Source: Patescibacteria group bacterium
GTDB lineage: Bacteria > Patescibacteriota > Patescibacteriia > UBA2196
DNA length: 64,000 bases
NCBI GenBank assembly: GCA_028748975.1
Contig: JAQTPI010000003.1
Span: 33,064-97,063 of the forward strand
Direction: 5' to 3'
Shown in pieces: positions 7,846 to 64,000 of this stretch. Positions within the stretch are counted from its first letter, which is position 1; each line of letters opens with the position of its first letter. The notes beneath the pieces are model-generated. The model ran no database searches and was not told where the DNA came from. It worked only from the letters and a program-made list of their open reading frames with translations. Position numbers and translations under genes: made by a program.

Positions 7846-7989
7846 ACAAATAAACAAATTTTCACAGATAGAGCGCGGATTCTCACAGATACACAGATTG
7901 TCTCACCCCACTTCTCTTAATTAGGGGGATGAATAAATCTGTGTATCTGTGTTGATCTGTCTGGTATCTGTGTCTATTTGTTTTGTTTT

Positions 7990-8661: not shown

Positions 8662-8803
8662 AATAATATAAAACAAATTTTCACAGATAGAGCGCGGATT
8701 TTCACAGATACACAGATTGTTTCACCTTTATACTTCTCTATTAGAGATAAATAAATCTGTGTATCTGTGTTGATCTGTCTGGTATCTGTGTCTATTTGTT
8801 TGG

Positions 8804-9415: not shown

Positions 9416-9558
9416 AGAGATAAACAAATTTTCACAGATAGAGCGCGGATTTTCACAGATACACAGATTGTTTCACCTTTATACTTCTCTATTAGAGATA
9501 AATAAATCTGTGTATCTGTGTTGATCTGTCTGGTATCTGTGTCTATCTGTTTTGATTA

Positions 9559-10826: not shown

Positions 10827-10970
10827 AGAAAATAAACAAATTTTCACAGATAGAGCACGGATTTTCACAGATACACAGATCGGCTCACCATGATTTTCTC
10901 ACTACCAGAGAGATGAGCAAATCTGTGCATCTGTGTTAATCTGTTTTACATCTGTGTAAATCTGTCTTGC

Positions 10971-11402: not shown

Positions 11403-11558
11403 AGAAACAGGTTTTCACAGATTTATTACAGATTTTCACAGATACACAGATAAGGCGATCTCATCCCCCTCTCCTTAATAAGGAGAGGGTTGGGGTGAGG
11501 TCGTAATATCTGTGTTTCTGTGTACTATCTGTCTGGCATCTGTGTCTATTTGTTTATT

Positions 11559-29083: not shown

Positions 29084-29105
29084 AGAAATTAAATTGCGCT
29101 AAAAT
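29077..29105 (+). promoter_or_regulatory. Consensus promoter TTGACA-17-TAAAAT overlapping the start codon of the divergent MBL gene
   Basis: ttgacatagaaattaaattgcgctaaaat. The ATG of the minus-strand gene (29081-29083) lies inside the -35 box. Confidence 0.55.
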
Positions 29106-29159
29106 GGAAGCAATAGCTCAAACAGGGCTAAATCACAAAACAGAAAAAGGAGGGAAACG

Positions 29160-29495
29160 ATGAGGGGTGTTCTCGTAGTAAATGCTGACACTTTGAGTAG
29201 CCAAAAAATATTCAAAAAAGTGCTCAACGCCTTTAGTGGAACAACGGTTGTCAATAGTAAAACTTTGGCCCTGGAAGAAATCAAAAAAAGGAATTATGAC
29301 GCTGTCATTATCGGGGGAATAGTCCTTTTTTGTTCTAACAATTTTGAACTCGCTCTGGAAATATTCAAAAACACTAGCAAACATCCCCTGGTTTTTATTG
29401 AAACCAAAAACGCCGGTTTAGTGCGAATTCCTTGGGAAAAATTGGAAAACAACATTCAAGACGAAGAATTAATACGCTTGATAAAAGAATCATAA
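29160..29495 (+). CDS. Hypothetical 111-aa protein, possibly a degenerate receiver-like fold (antisense cassette splitting comEC)
   Basis: Strong SD (aaaaGGAGGgaaacgATG). YDAVIIGG and ETKNAG resemble a receiver fold loosely. The terminator gccaccatgaacacctctggtggc + T-run is followed by ATTTGTCAAAAAA. Confidence 0.45.
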   Translation: MRGVLVVNADTLSSQKIFKKVLNAFSGTTVVNSKTLALEEIKKRNYDAVIIGGIVLFCSNNFELALEIFKNTSKHPLVFIETKNAGLVRIPWEKLENNIQDEELIRLIKES

Positions 29496-29512
29496 TTATT
29501 CCCCTCATCCCC

Positions 29513-29545
29513 GCCACCATGAACACCTCTGGTGGCCTTTTTTAT
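29513..29545 (+). terminator. Rho-independent terminator with the TTTTTTATTTGTCAAAAAA tail
   Basis: gccaccat…ggtggc stem followed by a T-run. Confidence 0.55.
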
Positions 29546-29663
29546 TTGTCAAAAAAGCGCTGACGCTACAACCACCCCACTCGCCTCTCGGCTCGCACCC
29601 CTCCTTCGAAAGGAGGGGATGAATGCGTCACCCCTTATTACTTATTACAGGATTATACTTTGT

Positions 29664-31160
29664 TTACTCTTCCAAAATAATTCTTTTTCTTATTATATAG
29701 TATATCATCCCCATCACGGCGTAAGAAACCAAAACCCACAGAAAATTAAAATTATTAACAGGCAGATGGCTGAAAGGAATTTTGGAACACCACTCGGAAA
29801 TGTAAATTACATAATTGGCGGATAAATAGACCGGCGCGGAAAAAAGAAAAATCAAAGGCGCGCCAAGGCCGAGGCCGGCCATGATGATAAAAATAAAACC
29901 AGCCACCATTAAAATTTCCACGGCGGGCACGGCCAAAATTAAAACATTGGTTAGGGGCGCAATCAATGAAACTGTTTGAAAGCGCCAAACAGTCAAAGGC
30001 CAAGTGATAATTTGCGCCGCGAGGGTCATCGCGAGCACGCTGCGTAAATCTTTGTTTTTAAAAATTCGATGAAACAGATGGGAAAAATATGGAGAAATAT
30101 AGACCAGCCCAAAGACAGCTAAAAAAGAAAGCTGAAAACCAATATCGCCAAGGAGCAAGCGCGGGTCCAAAAGCAAAAGAAAAACCGCGGCGGCTACCAC
30201 GGCGCGGCCGGCACTGCCCAATCTTCCCTCTTTTTGGGCAAAGGCCATAATCAAGCCCATCAGGGCCGAACGGATGGCCGGGGCATTGAAACTGATTAAA
30301 AAAAGATACAAAACCAAAATGGCCACGATAAAGTTGAAAGATTTTTGGCGCGACAGGCCCAAAAATAAAAATAACTGAAAAATTAAAGCGGAAAGCAGAG
30401 CGATATGGGTGCCGGAGATGGAAATGATGTGGATGACGCCGGAGTTGGAAAAATAATTATTCAATTCTTCCGTCAATTCGGCGCGTTCGCCTAAAATCAT
30501 GGCCAAATTCAAGGCCGAAGTGGGTGAAGACAAAAATTTATTGGCGCGAGCAGCCAGGGTTTTTCTTAAACTACTGAAAAAGTAAGAAATTTTATCCGGC
30601 CAGTTTTTATTTTGATTCGGTTCCAATTTTTTCAATTCCGGATAATAGCAAACTCGATAAACTCCGCGATCGGCCAAATAACCAGCATAGTTAAAATTAT
30701 CAATTTGTTGCGGAATTTTTAAATCACAATTAACTTGAATTTGGTCGCCAGCACCAAAAATCGGGTAGAGCGCGGCATTAACCAAAATTTTATCAGAAAA
30801 AAAATCATTATCATTTTTTATTTTGCCAATAATTAATTTTTGCGTGTCATTTTTAATTTGTGGTTCTTCCGCCACCACGCCGGTAAAAAAAGTTCTGGCT
30901 TCCGGCCAAAAAGCCGTGGAATTGGCAGCGGGTCGTGTGAAATTAAAACGCCAGAGGCCGAGAACTGCGCCAGTGAGAATTAAAAAAAATATAGCTGGTT
31001 TAGGCCGCCGGAAAATTTGAAATAAAAAAAAGAACGCCAAAGCGCTCGCTAAAAAAATCAAATAAAGTAAAAAATTATCAATAGCCATTAATTTTCCCAG
31101 AGCAACACCAGCGATGAAAGAAAGGCAAAAAAATAAAAAAATATTGGCCGACCTTAACAT
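29664..31160 (-). CDS. comEC: ComEC/Rec2 membrane domain (DUF4131 + competence domain); N-terminal half of a split ComEC
   Basis: Polytopic protein with …VIHIISISGTHIALLSALIF… as the competence-domain signature. The start is trimmed to MLRSANIF because upstream codons are repeat DNA. Confidence 0.75.
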   Translation of the reverse strand: MLRSANIFLFFCLSFIAGVALGKLMAIDNFLLYLIFLASALAFFFLFQIFRRPKPAIFFLILTGAVLGLWRFNFTRPAANSTAFWPEARTFFTGVVAEEPQIKNDTQKLIIGKIKNDNDFFSDKILVNAALYPIFGAGDQIQVNCDLKIPQQIDNFNYAGYLADRGVYRVCYYPELKKLEPNQNKNWPDKISYFFSSLRKTLAARANKFLSSPTSALNLAMILGERAELTEELNNYFSNSGVIHIISISGTHIALLSALIFQLFLFLGLSRQKSFNFIVAILVLYLFLISFNAPAIRSALMGLIMAFAQKEGRLGSAGRAVVAAAVFLLLLDPRLLLGDIGFQLSFLAVFGLVYISPYFSHLFHRIFKNKDLRSVLAMTLAAQIITWPLTVWRFQTVSLIAPLTNVLILAVPAVEILMVAGFIFIIMAGLGLGAPLIFLFSAPVYLSANYVIYISEWCSKIPFSHLPVNNFNFLWVLVSYAVMGMIYYIIRKRIILEE

Positions 31161-31317
31161 AAAATTCCAAGCTCCAAGCACTAAATTACAAACAAATTCC
31201 AAGCACCAAATCCTAAATCATAAATTGTTGGCGCGCCAGGCCAATTATTTGGAATTTAGAATCTATGATTTTGGATTTTTTTAGGATTTGGAATTTGGAA
31301 TTTAGAATTTAAAATCT
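31161..31317. repeat. Intergenic word-palindrome, CCAAG/TTGG family
   Basis: aaattccaagctccaagcactaaattacaaacaaattccaagcaccaaat…atttggaatttagaatctatgattttggatttttttaggatttggaatttggaattt. Confidence 0.8.
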
Positions 31318-36609: not shown

Positions 36610-36993
36610 AAAAACAGGTTGTCATCCCGAGGCCCGCTCCGCGTTTTATTGAGCGGGTTGAGGTGATCTCGTAGTTAATTTATCTTAATTTTATCATTCC
36701 TTTGATTAAAAAACAAAAAAACGGAAAGCTCGGGGCTTTCCGTTTTAATTTTATCAATATTAATAAAGGGCCAGTTTTACCAGCCGCCGCCACCGCCGCC
36801 ACCGCCGCCGCCGCCGCTCCCTTTGGGAGGAATTTCTGGGTCCGGGGTAGGATCCACACCAAATCTTATTGGCCGCTTATTCATTTTTAAAACCAACATA
36901 TGAGTGTAAATAGATTTTATTTATTTTAATCATTCCCCGACCTTTAACTAGGGATGATTTAGTTTAGAATTTAATTTATTCAAATAGAATACT

Positions 36994-37464
36994 TTAATCG
37001 TCTTCTTTTGACCGAGGCGGCGGCGTGTTTAGAATTTGTTGTTGACTTGCGCTTAAATTAATAGTGGCCCCCAGATCACCCAAATAGTATGCCTGCAAAA
37101 TTGACTCCGCACCACCAGAATGGGAAACACCGGGAGTTCTGTCTTTGGTTAAAAAAGCAGTAGTGCCATCCCGGCCACAAACGCTTAAAATTGTCTGGCT
37201 GCCGCCGGAATGAGAATAAATTAAAGAAGTCAGGTTATAAACCTGGCCGGAAATTATTGACCAGCAATCGGAAGCAGAATTGTGTTTGGCTACTTCCGCC
37301 ATGGTTAAATTAACCGGGCCGATGATGCCAGAATTATTAAGAATGGAATTTTGGCCGCCTAAATTATTTTTCTTTTCAGCCGAAAGCAAGCTGGCGGTAA
37401 TTAAGGCAACAGCCAGCGCCCAAAAAATAAAAAGAAAAACTCCGGTGAGATATTTTGTTTTCAT
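36994..37464 (-). CDS. Secreted cytochrome b5-like heme-binding domain protein
   Basis: Signal peptide, then AEVAKHNSASDCWSIISGQVYNLT…HSGG…CGRDGTTAF, which is the b5 fold signature. Confidence 0.65.
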   Translation of the reverse strand: MKTKYLTGVFLFIFWALAVALITASLLSAEKKNNLGGQNSILNNSGIIGPVNLTMAEVAKHNSASDCWSIISGQVYNLTSLIYSHSGGSQTILSVCGRDGTTAFLTKDRTPGVSHSGGAESILQAYYLGDLGATINLSASQQQILNTPPPRSKEDD

Positions 37465-38759
37465 AAGTTAAAATTTTCACTGATTATTTTTTTAGATTTG
37501 CCGCCCATCTTTTTTAATTGTCCTCTGATGGCTTGCATCATGCCGACCGGACCGCAGATGAGAATGGTGCGCTCGCGCCAATCCGGCACCAATTTTTCAA
37601 TAGCCGCGCCGTTTAAAAATCCGCTGGCTTCAGCGACCCAGACAATTGATTTAAAATTTTTAAAATTATTTTTGGAGTCTGCCAACTCCGAATTAAAAAC
37701 CACCTCGGCCGGTTTATTCCAGCTTTGGATCAAAACAATATCTTTTTCTTTATTTATTTCTTTGGCCAGAGATAAAAATGGGGTCAGGCCGATGCCGCCG
37801 GCAAGCCAAAGTTCGGGCCCGGAAATATTTTTCCCAAAACTGCCAAAAGGCCCTTCCACTAAAACCCTATCGCCGATTTTCAAAACCGCGAGTTTTTTAG
37901 TAAAATCACCGAGTTTTTTTATTACAATCCGCAAATCATTATTTTCTTTTCTCTCCACCAAAGAGAAAGGATGGCTTTCAGTCGGCAGTTCGGGATTATA
38001 GAAAGTAAAAAAGGCAAACTGCCCGCCAGAAATTAACACGGGTTTTCCCAAGGATTGCAGAGTGATATCAAAAAGATCTGGTTGCGGCTGTGTGATTTCT
38101 GAAATGGTGTAGGAAAAGCGCCGGCCGGCTTTTTTGGTCATCTGCAGGCGATAAATTATGCCAACCACGGCCAAAATTCCCAAAAGATAATAATATAGCT
38201 GCAGTGGCAAAAAGGCGGAAACATCGCTGGGCACCAATAAAATGTGGGGGTAAGTCAGGACAAAAACCAAAACCATGAATTTGTGCGAAAAAAGCCAGCG
38301 CTGATAGCTGGGCCGGAAAAAATAGGTCAAAACTAAAAGAAACATCAGGCCAAGCAGCGCCACAATGCCAAATAAAACCGGCAAGTTGTGAAAACTGGGA
38401 ATCAAAAGTTCGGCCGCGGCTTTGAGTGATCGCGAAACAAAGCGATATGCCAGAGCCAAGGGATGAACCAAAAGCAGACAAAAAGCCAAAGTACCCAGCC
38501 AATGGTGCTTGAGATAGACAAAATTCAAACCGGAAAACCAACGTTCCAAAAATTTGGCGCGCGAACTTAAAATAATATTGCCGACCAAAAATGACAGGCC
38601 GACAAGACCGCAAATTTGGCCAAGGCTGCGCCAGATATTAATGGTGGTGGTAAAACGAACCGAAAGCGGGATGGCCAAAATCCAGAGAATAAAAGGAATG
38701 CCGGCTAAAACCAGAAATAAAATTGTCCAGATAAAAAACGATTTGGAAAATATTTTCAT
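37461..38759 (-). CDS. Ferric-reductase/NOX-like membrane flavoprotein (FRE TM domain + FAD/NAD-binding)
   Basis: 6-TM N-terminal part with conserved His. HPFSL (FAD binding) and CGPVGMM (NAD binding) are present. A 4-bp overlap with the b5 gene indicates an operon. Confidence 0.7.
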   Translation of the reverse strand: MKIFSKSFFIWTILFLVLAGIPFILWILAIPLSVRFTTTINIWRSLGQICGLVGLSFLVGNIILSSRAKFLERWFSGLNFVYLKHHWLGTLAFCLLLVHPLALAYRFVSRSLKAAAELLIPSFHNLPVLFGIVALLGLMFLLVLTYFFRPSYQRWLFSHKFMVLVFVLTYPHILLVPSDVSAFLPLQLYYYLLGILAVVGIIYRLQMTKKAGRRFSYTISEITQPQPDLFDITLQSLGKPVLISGGQFAFFTFYNPELPTESHPFSLVERKENNDLRIVIKKLGDFTKKLAVLKIGDRVLVEGPFGSFGKNISGPELWLAGGIGLTPFLSLAKEINKEKDIVLIQSWNKPAEVVFNSELADSKNNFKNFKSIVWVAEASGFLNGAAIEKLVPDWRERTILICGPVGMMQAIRGQLKKMGGKSKKIISENFNL

Positions 38760-50938: not shown

Positions 50939-51658
50939 TTACCCTCGCGCTAAACACAGCCCCCAAACTTCACTCGCGCCGGCGGATTTCAAAACTTTGG
51001 CCACGGCAGCCATGGTTTCCGCGGTGGTGACGACATCATCCACTATCAAAATTTTTTTACCTTTGACTGCGCTTATTTCTAAACCAGGCACAAAAGCGCC
51101 GAGCATGTTTTTGGCGCGCGCTTTTTGGTTTTTTCCCACCTGCGTTTTGGTGTTTTTAATCCTTTTGACCGCGCTGGCAAGCACCGGAATTAAAAGGAAT
51201 TCACCAACCGCGCGCCCTAATAATTCGGCCTGATTAAACCCGCGCCAAAGTTCGCGTCGGGAAAAAAGCGGGATTGGCACAATGGCCTCAAAATATCTTT
51301 CGCTAAGGGCCGGCACAAAAAAATTATCCGCTTGCTCTAATTTTTCTATCAATAATTTGCCGAGCGGGGTTTTTAAATCTTGAATGAAATTATATTTGAA
51401 GCGATGAATTATTTTTCTAAGCAATTTATTGCGCCAATCGCCAGCAATAAAGATACCATCTAAACTTGAGCCGCGCCGACATTGATCATGAGTCTGACCG
51501 CGTAGCGCTGGCCGGGAACAAACCGGACAAAAAAATTCCTCTAAAACAGGAATTTTTGACTGGCAGTTTCCACACAGCCAGATTTTATCCCGACCACAGC
51601 CAAGACAGGAAATCGGAAAAAGAAGGTCTAAAATTATCTTTTTTACTCTAGTGAGCAC
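50939..51658 (-). CDS. comFC: ComF-family phosphoribosyltransferase-domain competence protein
   Basis: N-terminal double zinc ribbon (CLGCG…CGNC…CPVC) and a C-terminal PRTase motif (ILIVDDVVTTAETM). Confidence 0.8.
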   Translation of the reverse strand: MLTRVKKIILDLLFPISCLGCGRDKIWLCGNCQSKIPVLEEFFCPVCSRPALRGQTHDQCRRGSSLDGIFIAGDWRNKLLRKIIHRFKYNFIQDLKTPLGKLLIEKLEQADNFFVPALSERYFEAIVPIPLFSRRELWRGFNQAELLGRAVGEFLLIPVLASAVKRIKNTKTQVGKNQKARAKNMLGAFVPGLEISAVKGKKILIVDDVVTTAETMAAVAKVLKSAGASEVWGLCLARG

Positions 51659-51863
51659 AAAATTGTTCTGTTATCCTATTGTTAAATTGCTAAATTGTTG
51701 AATTGTTGCAACCCCTCCGTCCCGCTGCTGCGGGACACCTCCCCTTCGAAAGAGGAGGGTAGCTACGTCGGTATCCCCTCCTTTCGAAGGAGGGGTGGCC
51801 GATAGCAATCGGCCGGGGTGGTTGTTTAACAATTTAACAATGAAACAATTTTAACAATGATTC

Positions 51864-54584: not shown

Positions 54585-55289
54585 TTATCTCTCCTGTTCC
54601 ATTATTTTTTCCAATTCATTCATCTGCCCATTCTCCACTCTACTATTTCCAATAAACAGATACGGTGCTTGGTCAATCATTAAATTCTGGCCGTCTTCCA
54701 AATCTTGTCCCCACAATTGTAGCATGTTTTCGTTGGAGAGACAAGTGTCAAAAATTGCCGCGTCCAGACCTATTTTTTTAGCCAGAGAACGCAAAGTGGC
54801 AGCGCTTAGATCATCCTGATTTTTAAACATTAAATCGGCATAATCCAAAAATTTATTTTGCACTCCGGCGCAAAGCGCGGCCAGGCCGGCTTGACGCGCC
54901 GTATCACTGACGGAGGAAGGAAAATTTTTCCAGGCCAAAGTAAAATCCTGTTTTTCTTTTAGAGCCATTAATCTCTGCCAGACATCTTTACTGGCAACAT
55001 CAGTAAAATCGCCAAAAAATATTACCTTGGGATTGCCTGCGCCCACCACCGGCGTGTAGTTTCTGACAAAAGATTGATAATAATCGCCGGCTTTGGTAAT
55101 TAAGGGGTCGTTATTGGTTTGCTCCATTGTCCGCGGCGCGTAAATTTTTTCCGAAACACCGGAAAGAACAAGCTGGCGGGAAAAGAGGAAGTTATAAATT
55201 TGGCCGGAGACAACAAAGAAACCGGCTAGGGCGAAGAAAGAGCCAGCAACCAAAATATAATATATTTTTTTATTCTTTTTCTTCAGCAT
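54585..55289 (-). CDS. DsbA/BdbD-like thioredoxin-fold protein lacking the catalytic CxxC
   Basis: An N-terminal TM anchor. VIFFGDFTDVAS aligns to the VxEFxDYxCPxC position of DsbA-like proteins, but both cysteines are replaced. Confidence 0.55.
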   Translation of the reverse strand: MLKKKNKKIYYILVAGSFFALAGFFVVSGQIYNFLFSRQLVLSGVSEKIYAPRTMEQTNNDPLITKAGDYYQSFVRNYTPVVGAGNPKVIFFGDFTDVASKDVWQRLMALKEKQDFTLAWKNFPSSVSDTARQAGLAALCAGVQNKFLDYADLMFKNQDDLSAATLRSLAKKIGLDAAIFDTCLSNENMLQLWGQDLEDGQNLMIDQAPYLFIGNSRVENGQMNELEKIMEQER

Positions 55290-55417
55290 ACTTTATAAAA
55301 ATTTCTAATTCCTAATTACCAATTCCTAATGAAATGCCAAATGTTAAATGTCCAAAGTTCGGTTTTTGCCTTTGGCAAAAACCGATAGATTGGAAATTAG
55401 AAATTGAAAATTGGAAA
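55290..55417. repeat. Intergenic word-palindrome (ccaattcctaat…/…attggaaatt). A near-identical copy is at 62140-62311.
   Basis: ttctaattcctaattaccaattcctaatgaaatgccaaatgttaaatgtccaaagttcggtttttgcc…ggcaaaaaccgatagattggaaattagaaattgaaaattggaaatt. Confidence 0.8.
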
Positions 55418-56683
55418 TTATTTAAGTCGTATCTTATACATCTTCCCCGTATTCTCATCCCAAAAGAAAAGAGTGGCTTGATCGGCAGAAACTGACAAGC
55501 GGCCGATTTTGAAAATAGCTTGGCCATTTTCGTCAACCGGATCGGCAATTTTTTCTTTGGTGCCAGTGGCCAAATTAAGACGATAGATCGAATCAATTTC
55601 ATTTTTAATAACCTCGGAATAAAGCCCGGCGCCAGTCGGCAAATCGTCCGGCACGGCGCAATAAATTTCATTTTCGCTCGCAAAAACACATTTATCAACC
55701 CAAGTGGAAACATCCAAACTTAAACTGGGACCACCCAGACTGGCAGTCTGGCCGCTGGTAATTTTCAAGGAAGGATTAAAATCATTATCAGCAGTCGCGG
55801 TTTGATAAAGAATTTTCTGTCCAGAAGGCGACCAGAGGCCCTTAAAATTGGTACCCGTCACCTTGAGGGAACGGAAATTTTCGCCAGCCTGACCAATGAA
55901 AAATATTTCAGAAGAATCCAAACCGGTGGCTTTGGCATAAAAAGCAACGACATTACCGTTGGGAGAAAAAGTCGCTTGCACACGATTGCTCTCGGAACCC
56001 AGCGGTTCTATCAACTTGGCACCGGTGCCGTCGGGACGCGAGACTGCCACATAGTTGTTGTCGGGGTTATTGGTTTCGTATTTAAAAGAAATTTTAGATC
56101 CATCGGTGCTGAAAATTGGCTCGACCACGTTTTTGGGCAAGGTAACTTTTTTATTAGTGGCGAAATTATAATAAATTTTTAAATCATCGGGATAGGTGAC
56201 AATGGCAGCCGAAGTATCGGCGGACCAAACCACATCTTTCAGCTGCAAAAATTTTTCTTTGGATAAAAGCGCGCTTGCGCCGTCGGAAGAAATTTTGTAA
56301 AAACGGCTATCATCACGATTATAATAAACCAAATTGCCGCCACTATCAAGAGCCATGCCCAAAATTGATTGTTCATTAACAGCAGTGGCGCTGGTGGCGC
56401 CGCCATTGGCCACGGCGCTCGCGCCACTGAAAGTGTTTTCACCGACACTGGGCGTATTTTCCGGTAATTGCCCGCCAGAACCCAATTCTTGACCGCCAGT
56501 ACCGAGTTCGCTCCCAGGTAATTCGGCGCCAGTTGGCACATAACCCACTTCACCTGGTTGTGGCGCCGGAGTTGATTTAAAAAACATGAAATACATTAAA
56601 ATTACCAAACCCAAACACACCAAAACAAACCCGATAATAAGCAGGATTTTTTTCCAATTAAGTTGGGAGGGGTCAAAATTCAT
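55418..56683 (-). CDS. TolB-like beta-propeller (PD40-repeat) periplasmic protein
   Basis: TM anchor, a G/S-rich linker, then repeated …DGSKI.F… / …SPDGT… / …SPNGN… / …SPSGQ… propeller blades. Confidence 0.65.
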   Translation of the reverse strand: MNFDPSQLNWKKILLIIGFVLVCLGLVILMYFMFFKSTPAPQPGEVGYVPTGAELPGSELGTGGQELGSGGQLPENTPSVGENTFSGASAVANGGATSATAVNEQSILGMALDSGGNLVYYNRDDSRFYKISSDGASALLSKEKFLQLKDVVWSADTSAAIVTYPDDLKIYYNFATNKKVTLPKNVVEPIFSTDGSKISFKYETNNPDNNYVAVSRPDGTGAKLIEPLGSESNRVQATFSPNGNVVAFYAKATGLDSSEIFFIGQAGENFRSLKVTGTNFKGLWSPSGQKILYQTATADNDFNPSLKITSGQTASLGGPSLSLDVSTWVDKCVFASENEIYCAVPDDLPTGAGLYSEVIKNEIDSIYRLNLATGTKEKIADPVDENGQAIFKIGRLSVSADQATLFFWDENTGKMYKIRLK

Positions 56684-56743
56684 AAAAACATTTCAATTAG
56701 TTAGCATAAAAACACTAAAGCATTAAAACAGGAAAATAAATTA

Positions 56744-58033
56744 CTATTTATTACAAACATTGCAATATTGGGCATCGTTCTTTTTCAACCAATCACCGGC
56801 ATCAAATTTACTATAATCATTGCAAGTTGATATTTGAGAACAATCAAGTAAATAATTTTTTTTACCGCTTTCACTTTCAAAAGTAGTGAAATCCCCGTTA
56901 CTTTTCTGGCAACAAATGGTGTTGTCGTCATTGCCATTAATATAAAACGAATCGGAACAATAATCTTTGGGTTTGTCACTACTTCCTTTGTAACACTCGC
57001 CGGCAGCTCCGGCGGTCCAGCAAGAAACTCTTTTTCTGTCTTTGCCGCAAACCGCTATTCGCTCCCATTCGCACTTATCGGTGCTTAGGGCATTAACATC
57101 TTTGGAACAGGAATAGTCAAGAATGCCGCTGGCACGCGCCATGGCTGTGACTTCATTACAGCGCGAAGAACGAACTGATTCATCGGAATTTTTTTCTTGC
57201 GTGGATGCATCAGTGTAGCTTCTACAATACTCTTTTAAATTAATACAAAACGTACCAGTATTTTGGCCGGTATTAACACAATTATCGCCAGAACCACAAC
57301 CGTTTCGGCCAGAACAATAACCCAGGGAATTAAAACCGGCACCGACAAAATAACCGTAAGAATAAATAATGCCGCAACGGTCGGTCCCGCTGGTAATTGT
57401 TTTTTTGGAATTATCCACTACGACAATTTTGTTGCCATTAATGGTTTTATTGACGCTGGTGATGTCTCCGCACCAGGTAGAGTTAACGTTTTCTAATTTG
57501 GTAATATCGGTCACTCCCGGCAGGGTCAAGTTGATTAAACGCGGATTGATGTTGTATAAAATGACATAGGAGGTTAAGGCTAAAATTAAGCCGGCGATGG
57601 CGGCACTGATGGTGCTCTTGGCGTCACTGACTTTGCCAATATTGCCGGAGGCAAAAATCCACTGCAAGCCACCCCACATAATCATCACCACGGCCAAAAT
57701 CGCGATTAAGCCGATGGAAAATTTATAAAACCTGGCCACAAAAATTGGCAGGGAATCAACAGAATGACAAGGACGAGCAACGACTTGCGGACTGCCATTA
57801 TCGCCCATCACAATATAGTTGGGGTCATGATAGGTGCAGGTGGAAGAAAGTCCGGGAATGGGCACCTGAACACGAATTTTGCCTTCAGGCGGGCAGGTAT
57901 CACCGGCGCAGGCGCCGACGGAGGTGTTTTGCGCCGAAGCGTGGCTAGTAAAAAGTAAAACAGCCAAAATCAGATTGGCTAAAAAGAGCAAAATTATAAT
58001 TATAGTAGCGAGAGTGCTGAGTTTTTTGGACAT
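56744..58033 (-). CDS. Cys-rich secreted/membrane protein with an embedded VirB2/TrbC-pilin-like hydrophobic hairpin (T4SS-associated)
   Basis: Signal-anchor, then about 40 Cys. A central pair of hydrophobic helices (FSIGLIAILAVVMIMWGGLQWIF…AAIAGLILALTSYVILY) resembles a conjugative pilin core. It lies upstream of VirB4. Confidence 0.45.
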   Translation of the reverse strand: MSKKLSTLATIIIILLFLANLILAVLLFTSHASAQNTSVGACAGDTCPPEGKIRVQVPIPGLSSTCTYHDPNYIVMGDNGSPQVVARPCHSVDSLPIFVARFYKFSIGLIAILAVVMIMWGGLQWIFASGNIGKVSDAKSTISAAIAGLILALTSYVILYNINPRLINLTLPGVTDITKLENVNSTWCGDITSVNKTINGNKIVVVDNSKKTITSGTDRCGIIYSYGYFVGAGFNSLGYCSGRNGCGSGDNCVNTGQNTGTFCINLKEYCRSYTDASTQEKNSDESVRSSRCNEVTAMARASGILDYSCSKDVNALSTDKCEWERIAVCGKDRKRVSCWTAGAAGECYKGSSDKPKDYCSDSFYINGNDDNTICCQKSNGDFTTFESESGKKNYLLDCSQISTCNDYSKFDAGDWLKKNDAQYCNVCNK

Positions 58034-58190
58034 AAATTATGTTTCCCCGCCTTCGTTCTCTAGAGGTCTTTAACACTTCGGCGGGTAAACTTAGGTTGTT
58101 TTTATTATTATTAAAGATAAAAAAATTAGTAATTTATCCGCCGGAGCGTTCAATGGGACGCTTAGGAGCGCAGGCGGATAAATTATTATA
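58034..58190. repeat. 160-bp structured repeat, copy 2 (see 2986-3148)
   Basis: Near-identical to copy 1, including the gggacgcttaggagcgcaggcgga core. Confidence 0.7.
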
Positions 58191-58704
58191 TTTCGCAAGT
58201 GACGCCGACCCAACCCAAAATCGGCTTAAGAAACCCGAAGTTCTTTACTATTTCACATTTCATGGCTAGGGTAAACAAAACCACAAAAATTACCACGGCA
58301 ATGGCGAGTAGAACACCACCGACTTCAGGGCCAATCAGACCGGCAATCCAAAGAGCTACTTTTTTCCAAGCCGCGCTGGCCACCTTTTTGGCAACTTTTT
58401 TGGTTGCTTCGGCCGCAATTTCTTTTACCGCACCCGTAGCCTGCTCTTTAGCCATTTGCCTCATGTTATCAAGTCTTGTTTTTGTTTCTTGCTGTACATC
58501 TGGCGCCACAGAATCTGATCCTGGCTCTTCATTTTCTGTTTTTCTTCCCAAATTTTCTGGTACTTCTTCTTTTTTTATTTTTTTCAGCTGCCCCATTCTG
58601 TCGGCCACCTCTTGCTGTTCGCCCTCATTCAAATAATTCGGCTCCGTGCTGTACGGCTGCTCGTATAACGGAAATGGCTGATAATTTTCTTCTTGATCAG
58701 GCAT
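58186..58704 (-). CDS. Hypothetical membrane-anchored protein (T4SS locus)
   Basis: Q/E-rich N-terminal part and a C-terminal TM helix. The start is trimmed to MPDQEENYQ. Confidence 0.4.
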   Translation of the reverse strand: MPDQEENYQPFPLYEQPYSTEPNYLNEGEQQEVADRMGQLKKIKKEEVPENLGRKTENEEPGSDSVAPDVQQETKTRLDNMRQMAKEQATGAVKEIAAEATKKVAKKVASAAWKKVALWIAGLIGPEVGGVLLAIAVVIFVVLFTLAMKCEIVKNFGFLKPILGWVGVTCEI

Positions 58705-58720
58705 AAAATTAAAATTTATT

Positions 58721-59320
58721 CTACTGCCAGCGCGCCTCATCCACTTGCCACAAACCCGCTTCTTTAACAAAACTAATTAAAATATCTTGATAATAAACCT
58801 TGCTATTAACTTCGCTGCCAACTGATTCCTGGCGTTGGGTGGAAACCAAAACCTCGGCGGAAGTAGCGTCTAAATTTTTAATTTCCGTATTTAAAGCTTT
58901 GGTGGTTAAACCATAATAGACTGTGGCGGGGGCACTACCAGCCACGACTAAGGAATCAACCCAATTTTGCATCCGCTCCGTCATGAGCATTTTTAAATCC
59001 AGCAAATTTTCAAAATTGGACTGGCTGGAATAGGAACCAAATCTTTCGGCAAAAGCGGCGGCGGTTTTAATAAGAAAACCGCGGGTTTTTTCCTCCTCGG
59101 TCGGGGCAATTAGGGGCACTGATTCTGGTTCGGGGGCCGGTTCGGTTACTGCCGGTACTTCGGGGGTATTGGTGGTGACTTGGCCGGTATCCGGCGGCAA
59201 AATTACCGTATTAATATTTTCATCAACTTTTTGCTTCATGATCAAAAAAATCGCGAGAGTAATCACTCCCAGTAAAATAATTATGGCGATAATGGTAAAA
59301 ATGGTTCGGCCGCGAGGCAT
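58721..59320 (-). CDS. Hypothetical N-terminally anchored protein (T4SS locus)
   Basis: TM helix, a Pro/Thr/Glu-rich linker and a globular C-terminal domain. Confidence 0.4.
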   Translation of the reverse strand: MPRGRTIFTIIAIIILLGVITLAIFLIMKQKVDENINTVILPPDTGQVTTNTPEVPAVTEPAPEPESVPLIAPTEEEKTRGFLIKTAAAFAERFGSYSSQSNFENLLDLKMLMTERMQNWVDSLVVAGSAPATVYYGLTTKALNTEIKNLDATSAEVLVSTQRQESVGSEVNSKVYYQDILISFVKEAGLWQVDEARWQ

Positions 59321-59440
59321 AAATAATGTAAAAATTAAAAATCAAAATGTAAAATGACAAATTAAAATGTAAAATTTATTATCTTCGTGCCGCGGAGCGG
59401 CACTCCATAATTTTGATTTTTGATATTTGATTTTTGATTT
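59321..59440. repeat. Intergenic word-palindrome, AATGTAAAAT/ATTTTGATTTTTG family, with a GC hairpin core. Similar copies are at 61331-61449 and 62789-62885.
   Basis: aaaatcaaaatgtaaaatgacaaattaaaatgtaaaat…gtgccgcggagcggcac…attttgatttttgatatttgatttttgattttt. Confidence 0.8.
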
Positions 59441-61330
59441 TTATTGTTCCGTCCCCATGCTTTCTTCAAACTCCTTTTTGGCTTGCTCAATTTCCAAAAT
59501 TTGGCGCGGGTCGGAAGTGATAATTTGGTCTTCGGTGTAGGAAGCGACGATTTTGATGGCCGCGTGTTTGGCGCCGGCAAAGAAAATCCCCTCGCCCACG
59601 CCGGACTCAAGCAATAAATATTTTTCACCCTGGGTGAGACGGAAGGTTTTGGCAACGAGGTCAATCGCAGCGGGCGCCTGTTTCATCAATAATTGCAGGG
59701 CGCAGTTATTCAAAATTGACTGGCCATAGGGCGAAGTTAAAAAGTCATTGACGTCCTGAGTGATGGTGGTGATACCGAGGTAATATTTGCGGCAGCGCTT
59801 GACCAGAGCAAAAATAAATTTGGCCGAATCTTCATGCATCATCAGCCACCAGGCCTCATCAATAATCAACATTCTCTTTTTCAATTTAGAGCGGACTTTG
59901 TTCCAAATATAGTTAATGATGGTGTAGATGGCCATGGGGCGCAGCTCATCTTCCAAATCGCGCACGGAAAAAACTACCAATTGATTTTCCACGTCCACAT
60001 TGGTCGGATAATTCAAAAGTCCGGCAAAAGTGCCATTGGTGTATTTATCCAGTTTGCGCGCCAACTCTTCTCCACCGACCATGTTGGCCAAGACTTCCTG
60101 CAAATCGGACATGATGGGAAACTGAATGCCATCCTTGGTTAAATCCGTATCAGGCGTGATGTCGCGTTTAGCATAGGTTTCCAAAAGCGCGCGATCCAAA
60201 ATTGAATCTTCGGCGTGGGTTAGTGTCCCAAGCATGATGCGCAACAAACCTTTGACGGTGATGACCGCGGAGCGAATGATGTCGGCGGAACGGGTTTCTT
60301 CATCGGTGGGTTTGGGCAAATCAAAAGGATTAATTTTGGAATCGGAATTCAGGGAAATATTGACATAGGTGCCACCCACAGCTTCGGACAGATATTGATA
60401 TTCGCGTTCAGGGTCAATGACCATAACATCAGTGCCCATCATCATGCTTCTTAACACCTCCAATTTCACGGCATAACTTTTACCGGCACCGGAAGTGGCG
60501 AAAACAGCGGAGTTAGCGTTTTGCAGGGAAAAGCGGTCAAATAAAATCAAGGAATTATTGTGGCGATTGATGCCATAGAGAATGCCGGAGTCGGAGGAAA
60601 GTTCAGAAGAAACAAAAGGAAAAGAAGAAGCACAGGGCGAGGTCTGCATATTGAAGCCGACGGCCAATTCATCGTTGGCTAAAGGCAGGGTGGAATTAAA
60701 ACCTTGTTCACTTTGCCAATAGGCGCGGCGGGTGTAAACCATTTTGGAGCCAATGATGCTTTCAATTTTTTCGGTTAAGGTGTTTAAATCTTTCAGAGTG
60801 TCGGCATACATGGTGATATACAAACCAAAATGAAAAAAGTGTTCCAGTCCTTGGGTGAGGTCGTCGCGCAATTGTTCAATATCTTGGAGAGCAGTTTGAG
60901 TTTGTGGGTCGCGCGGCGCGCCTTTTTCCGAGTCGCCGGCCAGCTGCGCTTCCAAAACACCAACCTTATTGCGCAATTGTTTCAAAATTATTTTGGCATC
61001 CATGGGATAAAAATACATGGCAATATCCATGGTGGCGGAGAAATCAATAATCGGCTCAAACCAGCCCACATCAACATAGCGGGGATAGGTAGTCACAAAA
61101 ATGGTGCGCGCAATTTTACCGCCGACCATCAAATGGTCAGGTGACACCTGAAAAACAGAGGGGGAAAGCAAATCAATGACCGAAGCGGCGCCGGCGCGAT
61201 AGGCCTGTTCGGCGAGCAAAAGCTCGCGTTCTGTTTCCAGGCGCGTTTCCAGAGCTTTCTGTTTTTCCGCCGCGGTGGCTTCCGGCGGCAGATTTATGTC
61301 TTGAATTGTGGGTAATTTTTTACCGAACAT
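59441..61330 (-). CDS. VirB4/TraC/TrbE-family conjugal-transfer ATPase (C-terminal ATPase module)
   Basis: Walker A ATSGAGKSYAV, Walker B MLIIDEAWW and the characteristic VirB4 C-terminal domain. 629 aa. Confidence 0.75.
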   Translation of the reverse strand: MFGKKLPTIQDINLPPEATAAEKQKALETRLETERELLLAEQAYRAGAASVIDLLSPSVFQVSPDHLMVGGKIARTIFVTTYPRYVDVGWFEPIIDFSATMDIAMYFYPMDAKIILKQLRNKVGVLEAQLAGDSEKGAPRDPQTQTALQDIEQLRDDLTQGLEHFFHFGLYITMYADTLKDLNTLTEKIESIIGSKMVYTRRAYWQSEQGFNSTLPLANDELAVGFNMQTSPCASSFPFVSSELSSDSGILYGINRHNNSLILFDRFSLQNANSAVFATSGAGKSYAVKLEVLRSMMMGTDVMVIDPEREYQYLSEAVGGTYVNISLNSDSKINPFDLPKPTDEETRSADIIRSAVITVKGLLRIMLGTLTHAEDSILDRALLETYAKRDITPDTDLTKDGIQFPIMSDLQEVLANMVGGEELARKLDKYTNGTFAGLLNYPTNVDVENQLVVFSVRDLEDELRPMAIYTIINYIWNKVRSKLKKRMLIIDEAWWLMMHEDSAKFIFALVKRCRKYYLGITTITQDVNDFLTSPYGQSILNNCALQLLMKQAPAAIDLVAKTFRLTQGEKYLLLESGVGEGIFFAGAKHAAIKIVASYTEDQIITSDPRQILEIEQAKKEFEESMGTEQ

Positions 61331-61449
61331 AAAAAATGTAAAGTGTAAAAATCAAAATGTAAAATGACAATGTAAAATGTAAAATTTATTATCTTCATGC
61401 CGCGAGAGCGGCATACTATAATTTTAATTTTTGATTTTTAAATTTTTAT

Positions 61450-62127
61450 TTACTGTTCCACCTGCACTTCGCCCAAACTTGCCAGTTTCTGCTGATTATA
61501 GATATCTAAATTATAAGTATTATAAAATAATTCAATCAGGGCTTGGGTGTCCAGTTGCACCGCCGAAATACTCATACTGGAGAGTCCGGAAACCACGCGA
61601 TTGACGCGGGTGTCGATTTGCTTGCGGTAATCGGAAAATATTTTTTCATTCAAGCGAATGGCGGAAACAGGAGAGAGGGCGCCGGTTAAACGGCGGAAAA
61701 AATTTTCTTTATTTCCTCCACCGGGCACATAGGGCACCACCAGATAGAATTTTTTAGACATGATGTCGCCCAGCTCCACCAATTCTTTAATATAATTGAC
61801 GTATTCGGCGGTTTGCAGGCGCAGAAGTTCATTGGTTTGGGTTTTTTGTTTCTCCGCCACATCAGCGATATATTTATCAATATTCAGCTTGCGCGACTGA
61901 ACAACAATCTGCAGAGGAAAATCAATAAAATTTAAAAAGTTAATATAGGCGGAAACAATCGCCTGCTGTTCTTCGGTTGATTTCAAAGAAAAATTAATGG
62001 AAGACGCCAAAAGCACGGCGCGAATGGAGCCATCTTTCAAAATTACTAAGTCCGAGCGAATTTCCGCGATATCCAGATAGCGCTGGACCGAGGGCAGAGT
62101 GGGTTTTTTCTGTATCTCTTTTCCCAT
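61450..62127 (-). CDS. Hypothetical protein, probably the detached N-terminal domain of VirB4 or an associated subunit
   Basis: 225 aa, immediately upstream of the ATPase gene. The position suggests a split VirB4. Confidence 0.35.
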   Translation of the reverse strand: MGKEIQKKPTLPSVQRYLDIAEIRSDLVILKDGSIRAVLLASSINFSLKSTEEQQAIVSAYINFLNFIDFPLQIVVQSRKLNIDKYIADVAEKQKTQTNELLRLQTAEYVNYIKELVELGDIMSKKFYLVVPYVPGGGNKENFFRRLTGALSPVSAIRLNEKIFSDYRKQIDTRVNRVVSGLSSMSISAVQLDTQALIELFYNTYNLDIYNQQKLASLGEVQVEQ

Positions 62128-62311
62128 ATTGTTTATTTTAGTTTATCCCGAGTAAGCTGATAAATTTTACTATTAAATTTCTAATTCCTAATTACCAATT
62201 TCTAATGAAATGCCAAATGTTAAATGTCCAAAGTTCGGTTTTTGCCGGAGGCAAAAACCGACAGATTGGAAATTGGAAATTGGAAATTGGAAATTAGAAA
62301 TTGGAAATTAA

Positions 62312-62788
62312 TTATTCTCCCTTATACATCCCGCCCGTATCCACCACGAGCGCCAGTTCCGCCAGACGTGAGGAAGAAAGCGGTTCTTTAGTAATTTTCG
62401 GCGCCACTATTTTTTTCTCACCCATTTTTTTTCTTTCCATTTCAAATTTTAATTCTTCCATGGTGACGTTGCGATTCCAGACGCGCAGGCGCGGACGGCG
62501 CAAACTTTGAATGACATTTAAAAGAAAAAGATGAAAGGATTGGCCGTTGATTTTGATAAAAGCGATCACTAAAGCCGGAGCCGCGACAAAAAACAAACTG
62601 CCAAAAAACCAACCCAAAGAAGCCACGCGAAAAATTATCATCTCAATTACGCCCGCCACCACCACAATGATAAATTGCCGCACGGTAATTTTACCCAAAA
62701 TGCGGCTTTCTTCTTCAATGAATTGGGGAACGATGAATCTGCCATCCATAAAAATGTAAAGATTAAAAATCAAAATGTAAAATGACAA
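62312..62788 (-). CDS. VirB3/PrgI-like small membrane protein
   Basis: Two adjacent TM helices (IIVVVAGVIEMIIFRVASLGWFFGSLFFVAAPALVIAF), then a basic tail. It sits just upstream of the VirB4 genes. Confidence 0.4.
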   Translation of the reverse strand: MSFYILIFNLYIFMDGRFIVPQFIEEESRILGKITVRQFIIVVVAGVIEMIIFRVASLGWFFGSLFFVAAPALVIAFIKINGQSFHLFLLNVIQSLRRPRLRVWNRNVTMEELKFEMERKKMGEKKIVAPKITKEPLSSSRLAELALVVDTGGMYKGE

Positions 62789-62885
62789 TGTAAAATATAA
62801 AATTTATCTAATCTTTGTGCCCCGACAAGCGGAGCGTGGTCGGGGCACACCATAATTTTGATTTTTGATATTTGATTTTTGATTT

Positions 62886-63983
62886 TTAGTAGTTCAGCTG
62901 CTCATTCAAATCTCCAATCGCTTGAAATTCATCCCAAGTCAACCCGCTAGGTTTGTTTTTTAAAATTCCTTCAATCGGCAAGCTTTTAATTAAACTTTCT
63001 TCACCCACATTAACATAGAGCTGATAAAGCGGTGAGGATTTCCAAGCGGCAATGCCTTTGGCGCGTTCTTCCAAAGAAACATTGGCCAGCGCCATAATTT
63101 TTTCATAGAGCTTATTAACGCTTTCTTTGGGACTGCGACCCAGCGCGCGGAATTCTTTCAAATCCATATTCAGCAATTCTTCCACCGGCCCCATCACCCG
63201 CCGCTCTCTTTGCTCTTTCAATAAATAACTTTGATAATTAAAATCCTCGCGATTATCAGTGACTTGTTGTCTATTATTTATCGTCGGTCGTAAATCTTCG
63301 GTCGTCGGTTTTGTTGATTGTTGGTTGTTAGTTGTTGGTTGTCGATTTCCCGCTTTTATCGCCGCCACAATCTTCTGCAATTGCGGATTATCAATATCCT
63401 CCGGCCCCGCAGCCAGTTCTTCTTTCCATTTCGGTATTTTTTCTGCTAGCGGTTGCCTATTATAAGCCATTTCCTGATTTCCGATTTCTAATTTCTGATT
63501 TCCAGTTCCTGATTTAATATATTCCTCCGGCTTCTCCTGCCATTTTATTTTTTCTTTTTCTATTATTTTAATAATTTTATCCGCGGAGGCCAGGGTGATG
63601 GACAAACCGCCGCTGTCTGTTTTTTTCATCAAAGAATCCTTGGTGTCCACCAAAGAACGAATGTCGCGCAGGCGGGAAGCCACAATTTTTGACAAACGCG
63701 CTAAATCTTCGGGTGAAGCGATGTTAATTTCCGGCACTGTGTCTTTAATTTGCCGCGCGATTTTGGCCGCGCCCAAATTTATTGACTGTTCTTTTTTTTC
63801 CCGTTCGGTTATTAAATTATTGTCCTTAAATTCTTTTGCTTCTTCTTCGTCTTTGACATCAAAATAGAAAGCCGGCGCGGAAACTTTTTTGGGTAGCTCC
63901 GTCCCCCTCTCCTTACCAAGGAGAGGTCCGTCAGCTGGCGGAGGGGTGGGGTTTATTATACTCGTGCCGCCAGCGGGCGGCAC
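62886..63983 (-). CDS. Hypothetical T4SS-locus protein with repeat-encoded low-complexity inserts. The 5' end is uncertain and may extend past the window.
   Basis: The ORF begins with GTG inside a GC-hairpin element. It contains KSGTGNQKLEIGNQE and QPTTNNQQSTKPTT runs encoded by word repeats. Confidence 0.35.
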   Translation of the reverse strand: MPPAGGTSIINPTPPPADGPLLGKERGTELPKKVSAPAFYFDVKDEEEAKEFKDNNLITEREKKEQSINLGAAKIARQIKDTVPEINIASPEDLARLSKIVASRLRDIRSLVDTKDSLMKKTDSGGLSITLASADKIIKIIEKEKIKWQEKPEEYIKSGTGNQKLEIGNQEMAYNRQPLAEKIPKWKEELAAGPEDIDNPQLQKIVAAIKAGNRQPTTNNQQSTKPTTEDLRPTINNRQQVTDNREDFNYQSYLLKEQRERRVMGPVEELLNMDLKEFRALGRSPKESVNKLYEKIMALANVSLEERAKGIAAWKSSPLYQLYVNVGEESLIKSLPIEGILKNKPSGLTWDEFQAIGDLNEQLNY

Positions 63984-64000
63984 ACCAAAATCTTGTGTTT

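Follow-up and report, generated by a model that had tools for sequence, protein, structure and literature searches.

The closest described counterparts of the locus reported here are the type IV secretion systems (T4SSs) of the Patescibacteria. In a survey of 3,035 genomes from this group, VirB4 was found in 2,417, as a clade nested in MPF-FATA; TrsD was the commonest protein to accompany it, PrgI/VirB3 and VirB2-like pilins (PF18895) were recorded, often in arrays, VirB8 homologs were rare and almost all from ABY1, relaxases were nearly absent, coupling proteins were encoded far from virB4, and the T4SS loci of ABY1 were co-located with comF, recG and radA (Quinonero-Coronel et al. 2025; PMC12102498). 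Southlakia epibionticum cannot do without its T4SS and pilin array when it lives on its host (Wang et al. 2023, cited in PMC12857230), whereas a comEC deletion is viable (PMC12857230); the coupling-protein homolog of this species is dispensable (PMC12102498). Reviews treat the function as unsettled, with effector delivery and the uptake of nutrients or DNA as proposals (PMC12857230, PMC11665869), and, according to a 2026 preprint, a cultivated relative takes up host RNA and has tubular structures, which may be T4SS pili, where it touches the host. The system is essential in the sole species tested and is a leading candidate for the means by which such minute cells obtain nutrients from their hosts. 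We describe here a T4SS locus in a stretch of 64,000 nt (hereafter the window; contig JAQTPI010000003.1 of GCA_028748975.1, positions 33,064-97,063, forward strand) from a Patescibacteria group bacterium.

We consider it likely that this locus is a chromosomal, vertically inherited, non-conjugative Patescibacteria T4SS, derived from MPF-FATA and in the ABY1-type arrangement that is typical of Magasanik-, Uhr-, Falkow- and Buchananbacteria. It belongs to the known kind because it matches the published description (PMC12102498) feature by feature: an MPF-FATA VirB4, a separate TrsD-like protein, PrgI/VirB3, a PF18895 pilin and a VirB8-like protein, no relaxase or nearby coupling protein, a chromosomal site and a link to comF. 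The cluster has already been described in the literature (2023-2025), and the window holds an ordinary intact copy. Unlike the described systems, including that of Southlakia, it has a single pilin gene instead of an array, a 255-aa Cys-rich outer domain on that pilin, a TolB-like and DsbA-like pair encoded with it, and palindromic inserts that swell its gene junctions; neither this pair nor large pilin outer domains are mentioned in the main text of PMC12102498. The locus adds no new kind of system and sharpens the picture for uncultured ABY1-type lineages: gained are a gene order (VirB6-like ... cytoplasmic helical protein - VirB3 - TrsD - VirB4 - VirB8-like - comF) and a travelling pilin/TolB-like/DsbA-like module, in which the DsbA-like active site is dead in the window lineage. 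Modest new points are a conserved cytoplasmic protein and a widespread palindromic family that has invaded the junctions of operons.

The surroundings are those of a core chromosome: the window encodes SecY, ribosomal proteins L2, L3, L4 and S7, EF-Tu, EF-G, ComEC, sigma-70, DnaG and ClpB, the S10 ribosomal operon is part of this context, and an open reading frame (ORF) that we read as ComF, from its sequence and synteny, is also present. Thirty-nine ORFs of the window, among them all non-overlapping ones longer than 210 aa, were scanned with Pfam, which returned no relaxase, no VirD4/coupling protein and no VirB6 in the 64 kb; nor was any relaxase, coupling protein or oriT linked to mating-pair genes in the window or, as far as these were scanned, in the 10-kb flanks of relatives. 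Together with the VirB4, PrgI and pilin profile matches given below, these housekeeping neighbours and the lack of a relaxase or coupling protein in the window bear out an earlier note on this DNA, which had read the locus as a minimal, non-conjugative T4SS of an episymbiont.

For comparison, one genome per species was scanned, which yielded 80 loci encoding a VirB4 that is 52-82% identical to that of the window, and the order of genes in these loci was obtained by tblastn of the window proteins. By record title most of them are Patescibacteria, among which Magasanik-, Uhr-, Falkow-, Buchanan- and Veblenbacteria are named, lineages that we take to belong to GTDB class ABY1; a minority carry other or placeholder labels, and the odd titles of metagenome-assembled genomes ('uncultured Gammaproteobacteria', 'Candidatus Methylomirabilis sp.') are probably for the most part placeholder or mislabelled names. 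The VirB4 of the closest relative, L082, is 94.6% identical to that of the window, and L001, L002 and L082 serve as proxies for the sequence beyond the window end. In addition, an independent Logan short-read contig of the same organism (L081, from SRR22315508; 4 kb, equivalent to window ~55390-59367) has the same 199-, 172-, 429- and 421-aa genes called.

All the minus-strand ORFs listed by the earlier note are present where it had placed them, and the order hypothetical protein, PrgI, TrsD-like, VirB4, PrgL-like is fixed among the relatives, these genes being present in 63, 69, 73, 80 and 65 of the 80 loci, respectively. The ORF at 62312-62788, previously described as VirB3-like, is a PrgI protein by a match above cutoff (Table 1); its start is most likely the ATG at 62749, since all three copies of a palindromic element described below abut an ATG and the L082 ortholog (86% identical) is called at 145 aa. 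The next gene had been put forward as a possible N-terminal domain of VirB4, and the profiles point the same way: it matches positions 128-233 of NF045975 (E=1.6e-8) and TrsD NF041427 (E=5.6e-5), both under the curated cutoffs, it aligns with positions 25-103 of CD1110, and only the N-terminal part of the VirB4 models is matched. Its ortholog in L082 is 89% identical and annotated as PF26593 TraC-like.

The 629-aa ATPase that follows was proposed to be a VirB4 with Walker A and B motifs, and such it proved: its score with NF045971 (CD1110 VirB4-like) is 349.8 bits, where the cutoff is 325 (E=3e-104; profile positions 156-729 of 752), it also matches PF19044 (TraG P-loop) at E=1.3e-28 and PF12846 (AAA_10), and both motifs were located (SGAGKS, aa 280-285; LIIDEAW, aa 488-494). 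The earlier note had named a non-VirB4 identity, for example FtsK-like, as what would undo its reading; in that case the ATPase would pump DNA in the manner of FtsK or HerA, and the cluster would have nothing to do with type IV secretion. We regard this as almost certainly wrong: secondary HerA matches do exist (DUF87, E=1e-7; NF040819, E=6e-4), but they are some 100 orders of magnitude weaker than the above-cutoff VirB4 match, and therefore the objection fails, while the PrgI, TrsD-like, PrgL-like and T4SS_pilin neighbours agree on a T4SS. It is also highly improbable that the locus is the decaying remnant of an integrated conjugative element, with its VirB4 broken, its operon disrupted by repeats and its VirB6, VirD4 and relaxase lost, even though VirB4 occupies two ORFs, repeats fill junctions that are 97-184 nt long, and those three genes are absent from the window. 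The supposed split does not survive comparison: the TrsD-like ORF ends before the VirB4 start in all 73 loci that have both (median spacing 25 nt; often in different frames), so the two-gene state is old, fixed and ancestral rather than a recent break, and it is the normal arrangement in this clade (PMC12102498). Moreover, all ORFs are intact and highly conserved, as the VirB4 identity with L082 illustrates, synteny is kept across the 80 species genomes in a core-genome context, relatives have a VirB6-like gene upstream, and the repeats stand exactly between stop and start codons and fill the ribosomal-protein operon too. The locus is an intact, standard, vertically conserved Patescibacteria cluster that is cut by the window edge, and not a decayed fragment.

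Table 1. Features of the T4SS locus and its surroundings; nucleotide positions are those of the window, and aa ranges are positions within the pilin.
Feature	Position	Strand	Evidence or description
Conserved cytoplasmic helical protein, 3' part	62886..64000	-	365 of 444 codons; cut by window end
Palindromic element copy 3, AAATCAAAAA / ATTTTACA family	62750..62885	-	-30.2 kcal/mol, z=-4.2; L082 junction 12 nt
PrgI/VirB3-like membrane protein, 145 aa	62312..62749	-	Two transmembrane (TM) helices; PF12666 38.4 bits, cutoff 27
Second-family spacer, AATTTCC heptamers around TCGGTTTTTGCC..GGCAAAAACCGA	62128..62311	-	z=-8.0; L082 junction 10 nt
TrsD/TraC-like protein, 225 aa	61450..62127	-	Equivalent to first ~150 residues of full VirB4
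Palindromic element copy 2	61331..61449	-	z=-5.6; L082 junction 8 nt
VirB4 ATPase, 629 aa	59441..61330	-	NF045971; Walker A 60476-60493, Walker B 59849-59869
Palindromic element copy 1	59321..59440	-	z=-3.6; L082 junction 10 nt
PrgL/VirB8-like protein, 199 aa	58721..59320	-	N-terminal TM anchor, Pro/Glu-rich linker, ~120-aa C-terminal domain
172-aa protein, acidic N-terminal part, C-terminal membrane anchor	58186..58704	-	Gene call in L081; TM aa 128-146
Long hairpin then T-run, terminator-like, after core operon	58034..58185	-	Fold -42.7 kcal/mol, z=-4.8
VirB2-like pilin protein, 429 aa	56744..58033	-	PF18895 T4SS_pilin aa 101-161, 27.4 bits, cutoff 26.6
Pilin: signal-like N-terminus/TM	aa 1-34		MSKK..., hydrophobic stretch, ASA/Q; read from sequence
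Pilin: small outer segment	aa 35-96		4 Cys
Pilin: two-helix pilin hairpin	aa 97-162		AlphaFold2 (AF2) helices H97-127/H132-162
Pilin: conserved NPRLxNLxLPG motif	around aa 164-173		
Pilin: Cys-rich C-terminal outer domain, 255 aa	aa 175-429		20 Cys
Membrane-anchored TolB-like beta-propeller, 421 aa	55418..56683	-	TIGR02800 E=3.6e-8, far under cutoff; weak PD40
Second copy of AATTTCC-family spacer	55290..55417	-	z=-5.6
Membrane-anchored DsbA-like thioredoxin-fold protein, 234 aa	54585..55289	-	PF13462 E=1.5e-8, PF01323 E=2.8e-5
ComF (ComFC-like)	50939..51658	-	Sequence read: Cys-rich N-terminus, phosphoribosyltransferase-type C-terminus

Outside the Patescibacteria, the monoderm MPF-FATA conjugative systems, namely pCF10 Prg/Pcf (PrgI, PrgJ, PrgL, PrgH), pGO1/pSK41 Trs (TrsC, TrsD, TrsE) and CTn2 (CD1110), are related to the window locus by sequence-level homology of VirB4 (the CD1110 model is matched above cutoff), PrgI, TrsD and PrgL. 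Unlike them, the window locus is chromosomal and vertically inherited, is without a relaxase, coupling protein, oriT or PrgB-type adhesin, and possesses a VirB2-like pilin, which those systems lack. Archaeal Ced (CedA/A1/A2/B) and Helicobacter pylori ComB offer another parallel, being VirB4-driven, without relaxase or coupling protein, and equipped with a VirB2-like pilin. ComB acts in concert with ComEC and ComFC, and comF adjoins the T4SS genes in relatives of the window locus. However, the window locus is a member of neither family: the CedB model reached only 48.7 bits against a cutoff of 700, the outer-membrane parts of ComB are absent, and no homologs of VirB7, VirB9 or VirB10 were found.

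The gene upstream of prgI, which the earlier note had called hypothetical and confined to 62886-63983, is there, but its end is not: the ORF runs off the window, and the deposited full protein (P0016) has 444 aa and begins MDDILIKTKSGGFK. A homolog directly precedes PrgI in 63 of the 80 related loci. The protein lacks TM segments and matched nothing in Pfam or the PDB; its AF2 model consists of two confident helical domains with disordered linkers between them, and likewise gave no significant fold match in the PDB. At ~63870-64000 the gene contains an in-frame insert of ~30 aa that is absent from P0017 and P0018 (71-74% identical), and the DNA of this insert comprises three GC-hairpin modules that elsewhere in the window are the cores of intergenic palindromes, in the manner of the Rickettsia palindromic elements. 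An exact 30-mer from this gene had no match among metagenome contigs.

Beyond the gene upstream of prgI, 51 relative loci encode, 3-7 kb upstream and on the same strand, a VirB6-like protein of ~995 aa with ~9 TM segments; six of 24 such members match TrbL/VirB6 PF04610 (best E=5e-5). In L082 the layout is 1437-aa Cys-rich protein, 995-aa VirB6-like protein, 336-aa protein, hypothetical protein, PrgI, TrsD-like, VirB4, 201-aa protein and 179-aa protein. Because of this synteny with close relatives, a VirB6-like gene probably lies just past position 64000 in the window genome. The cluster of the relatives begins with a giant Cys-rich protein (L001 34-3378, 1114 aa, 40 Cys; L082 1653-5966, 1437 aa, 31 Cys), and the VirB6-like protein, which has a large soluble C-terminal part, is next in line (L001 3408-6392; L082 5981-8968). 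To judge from these close relatives, a giant Cys-rich surface protein would also stand just upstream of the window.

Downstream of VirB4, both products at 58721-59320 and 58186-58704 carry the membrane anchors that had been ascribed to them, at the N-terminus and the C-terminus, respectively. The single 199-aa sequence had no Pfam match; a profile of 26 orthologs aligned with PrgL of pCF10 (PDB: 7aed) at E=3e-4 over 124 positions, and the gene comes after VirB4 in 65 of the 80 loci. Homologs of the 172-aa protein come after the PrgL-like gene in L082 (42% identity) and L027; in L001 this position is taken by an ORF of 162 aa whose N-terminal part is acidic and whose C-terminal part has two TM segments, but which gave no tblastn match to the 172-aa protein. 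A comF homolog directly follows the PrgL-like gene in 53 of the 80 loci (tblastn); in the window, the pilin module and ClpB stand between the two.

The 429-aa pilin, whose exact sequence NCBI lists under the name 'pilin [Patescibacteria group bacterium]', had been described as a protein with about 40 Cys and an embedded pilin-like hairpin. The hairpin is upheld by the PF18895 match above cutoff; the number of Cys has to be corrected to 24. No second pilin gene was found in the window. Both outer segments contain an even number of Cys (4 and 20), which fits a picture in which the segments on either side of the hairpin are extracellular and disulfide-bonded. The hairpin core is 68-89% identical to those of its few full-length homologs, and the C-terminal domain 23-40%. 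When the C-terminal domain by itself was searched exhaustively against 1.84 billion representatives, only seven proteins were returned at E<=1e-3, the query included; of the six others, five are 411-438 aa long and matched at the equivalent C-terminal position, which suggests that these five share the architecture of the pilin. We compared 36 pilin-like proteins from 21 related loci: a C-terminal extension of 150-290 aa is present in 33 of them, and 23 contain 14-30 Cys. The hypervariable, disulfide-rich outer domains of ABY1 T4SS pilins may set host specificity; such large, fast-evolving Cys-rich domains, found clade-wide, are natural candidates for host recognition. Kinship between the Cys-rich domain of the pilin and the giant Cys-rich upstream proteins of relatives was considered and dismissed: they are not related, and a match to P0013 was to a spurious repeat protein. 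A Foldseek search of the AF2 model of the pilin against the PDB returned nothing. We also observed the PF18895 hairpin fused to Peptidase_C39_2 and YkuD L,D-transpeptidase domains (P0009, P0010), which suggests that the hairpin is a carrier for varied outer domains.

The pilin is accompanied by the TolB-like propeller and the DsbA-like protein without CxxC that the earlier note had recognized. The first assignment is in keeping with weak TolB/PD40 matches; the protein has an N-terminal TM segment and adjoins pilin genes in 17 related loci. For the second, the thioredoxin-fold matches correspond to the C-terminal part of DsbA/Thioredoxin_4, and the active site reads TDVA (~54996-55007) where relatives have CPYC, CPFC, CSHC, CGAC and others. 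In 14-21 loci the pilin/TolB-like/DsbA-like block either adjoins the operon, as it does in the window, or lies 7-10 kb away. CxxC is kept in nine of 13 syntenic DsbA-like orthologs with an aligned motif region, and L001 and L002 have LPAC. The relatives with an intact CxxC mostly have Cys-rich pilins (14-30 Cys), L013 (CNFC; 0 and 6 Cys) being the exception, and where the motif is broken, in two relatives (CEYG, CPYS), the pilins are Cys-poor (5-10 Cys). This pattern does not hold for the window, L001 and L002, with a dead motif and 24 Cys; the combination of a Cys-rich pilin and a redox-dead DsbA-like neighbour is thus as unusual as had been claimed. In the window lineage the DsbA-like protein may act only as a chaperone. 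The F-plasmid TraF reportedly has a thioredoxin fold without CxxC and is required to assemble F pili, and it resembles the present case in that a redox-dead thioredoxin-fold protein is encoded with a T4SS pilus module; we draw only an analogy here, and one in which the DsbA-like orthologs differ by mostly keeping CxxC, with loss in the window lineage only.

From general T4SS knowledge, VirB4 would dock on PrgI/VirB3 and on the TrsD-like piece, which would replace VirB4's own missing N-terminus; VirB4 would form a membrane channel with the VirB6-like and VirB8-like proteins, and would extract the VirB2-like protein from the membrane into a surface filament or anchor, such that the variable Cys-rich domain of the pilin contacts the host cell. 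A host-contact role of the pilin is suggested by the much faster divergence of its outer domain than of its core, and by the frequency of large Cys-rich extensions in relatives. We infer that the purpose of the system is interaction with a host bacterium and not conjugation, which is very unlikely because there is no relaxase or coupling protein and the locus is vertically inherited in a core-genome context. As to the substrate, we lean, tentatively and with less than even confidence, towards the uptake of host macromolecules, especially nucleic acids, because of the adjacency of comF in relatives, the presence of ComEC in the window, the precedents of Ced and ComB, and the host-RNA preprint. 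A dedicated effector or toxin export machine, which would inject proteins into the host bacterium and use the pilin outer domain for targeting, is possible but doubtful: this would be the usual direction for a T4SS, effector delivery to host cells has been speculated for the T4SS of Saccharibacteria (PMC11665869), surface parts that evolve fast are in keeping with host-specific targeting, and the other PF18895 proteins with Peptidase_C39_2 and YkuD domains are cell-wall-active in type; yet there is no coupling protein and no recognisable effector gene in or beside the cluster, the coupling-protein homolog of Southlakia is dispensable, and export leaves the comF linkage unexplained. That the machinery serves adhesion only we judge improbable.

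A number of observations count against our reading of the locus as a T4SS of the known Patescibacteria kind that contacts the host through its pilin and takes up host macromolecules. The T4SS of Southlakia is essential and yet its comEC deletion is viable, so the essential role there is not ComEC-dependent DNA uptake. The AF2 model of the pilin is poor overall (predicted local distance difference test score, 59); its outer domain, at ~28 kDa on every subunit, may be too bulky for a packed pilus, so that the protein might instead be just an anchor in the membrane or a minor subunit; nor can the DsbA-like neighbour itself form the pilin disulfides, because its active site is lost. The matches of the TrsD-like protein fall below cutoff, as do those of the TolB-like protein and several others. 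The presence of a VirB6-like gene in the window genome is extrapolated from L001, L002 and L082 only.

The least expected result of this analysis is the family of palindromic elements that fills the gene junctions. The earlier note had seen one such palindrome at every junction; this is true of three of the five core junctions, whereas the PrgI/TrsD junction is occupied by another family and 58705-58720 has none. Copies 1-3 (Table 1) are one ~120-nt element (75-98% identity), of which a partial fourth copy lies inside the gene upstream of prgI (~63950-64000), and the motif ATTTTACATTTTGATTTTTA has five matches in the window against 0.14 expected. In the direction of transcription, each element consists of a stop codon, AAAATCA-type heptamers, a GC hairpin (GTGCCGC...GCGGCAC; copies differ by one double change, G-C to A-T) and ATTTTAC-type heptamers that end at the next ATG; each arm, read outward, has a promoter-like TTGTCA-N17-TA(A/C)ATT. 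The second-family spacer at the PrgI/TrsD junction is 94% identical to 55299-55420, and its core motif occurs twice against 0 expected. All the junction elements fold far better than shuffled sequence (z -3.6 to -8.0). The corresponding four junctions of L082 (11242-14289) measure 12, 10, 8 and 10 nt and are without a Shine-Dalgarno-like sequence, compared with 97-184 nt in the window; bearing in mind that the two VirB4 proteins are 94.6% identical, the window spacers are therefore recent insertions. They have left all reading frames intact.

These repeats are no property of the T4SS but a genome-wide invasion of palindromic elements. Among 56 intergenic regions of 60-320 nt in the window, 33 have a fold z below -3, three of these 33 apparently being tRNA genes, and palindromes built from 7-11-nt tandem units around GC hairpins fill most intergenic regions from 1326 to 62885 (for example 7858-7989, 8677-8803, 9428-9558, 10869-10970, 11403-11558 and 51659-51863). 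Families in the window include ACAGAT, CGAAT, TTCCAAAT and GTAATAA, each of which clusters locally; five junctions of the ribosomal-protein operon (around L4, L23 and L2) carry the ACAGAT family. No Rfam family was found for the junction elements and no transposase domain in the window ORFs scanned, and target-site duplications are unreadable in the A/T-rich junctions. TIGR arrays were dismissed as the identity of the spacers, as there is no 36-nt period. We also noted that the L081 contig starts and ends inside palindromic spacers; the repeats therefore break assemblies of this organism.

The element is not confined to this genome. An exact 23-mer from its right arm, GTCATTTTACATTTTGATTTTTA (window 59336-59358, 61346-61368 and 62764-62786), is present in at least 120 metagenome contigs (loci L085-L204) with a GC content of 28-52%, where fewer than one would be expected by chance, and it is absent from viral contigs. 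Among the matches listed, a recognisable inverted left arm lies 17-123 nt from the 23-mer in 69 of 111, the elements stand mostly between co-directional genes, with 60 in one orientation and 48 in the other, and an ORF starts 11-33 nt past the 23-mer in 54 of 120; the genes that follow are diverse, and include a SecY that is 51% identical to window SecY and another PrgI. The two orientations among these matches led us to reject a one-directional promoter cassette. A structured RNA was rejected as well: arm pairing within elements was 0.54 (outer) and 0.61 (inner), no better than the 0.57 and 0.65 obtained with arms swapped between elements, and therefore the complementarity, lacking covariation, reflects a heptamer consensus that the arms share rather than selection for base pairing.

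The best reading is that these elements are a MITE/REPIN-like mobile palindrome family (MITE, miniature inverted-repeat transposable element). They exhibit presence or absence at orthologous sites, multiple copies and both orientations. With REP/REPIN sequences, the Correia elements of Neisseria, the Rickettsia palindromic elements and MITEs they have in common intergenic hairpin units of ~100-180 nt in many copies and families, which are present or absent between close relatives, occasionally lie in-frame in genes, and bear outward promoter-like motifs. They differ from these in that the arms are arrays of 7-11-nt tandem units, that a family has its copies grouped at adjacent junctions within a single operon, and that an exact 23-mer is common to contigs of 28-52% GC, with no transposase found among the window ORFs scanned. 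Searches of the literature on Patescibacteria for MITEs, palindromes or leaderless genes gave nothing relevant. We advance, as a speculative proposal about which we remain more doubtful than convinced, that this is an undescribed, widespread Patescibacteria mobile family: inverted (AAAATNN)n / (NNATTTT)n heptamer arrays with an optional GC-hairpin core would insert into the 8-12-nt gaps of essential operons (T4SS, S10) in either orientation and spread to neighbouring junctions, and their outward promoter-like ends would come to lie 11-33 nt from the next start codon. If true, tightly coupled operons would be turned into separately promoted, hairpin-punctuated genes. A possible new mobile-element family of this kind also explains the poor assembly of such genomes.

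Elsewhere in the window, ComEC is encoded as two adjacent genes (28226-31202): one for the Competence and DUF4131 domains (29664-31202) and one for a separate metallo-beta-lactamase protein (28226-29083). At 36994-38759, a ferric-reductase-like membrane flavoprotein (432 aa) adjoins a cytochrome b5-like protein (156 aa), a redox pair that is unexpected for a genome of this type. Close by, a GCC triplet run (x 11.7; 36783-36817) lies inside an apparently non-coding stretch of 384 nt.

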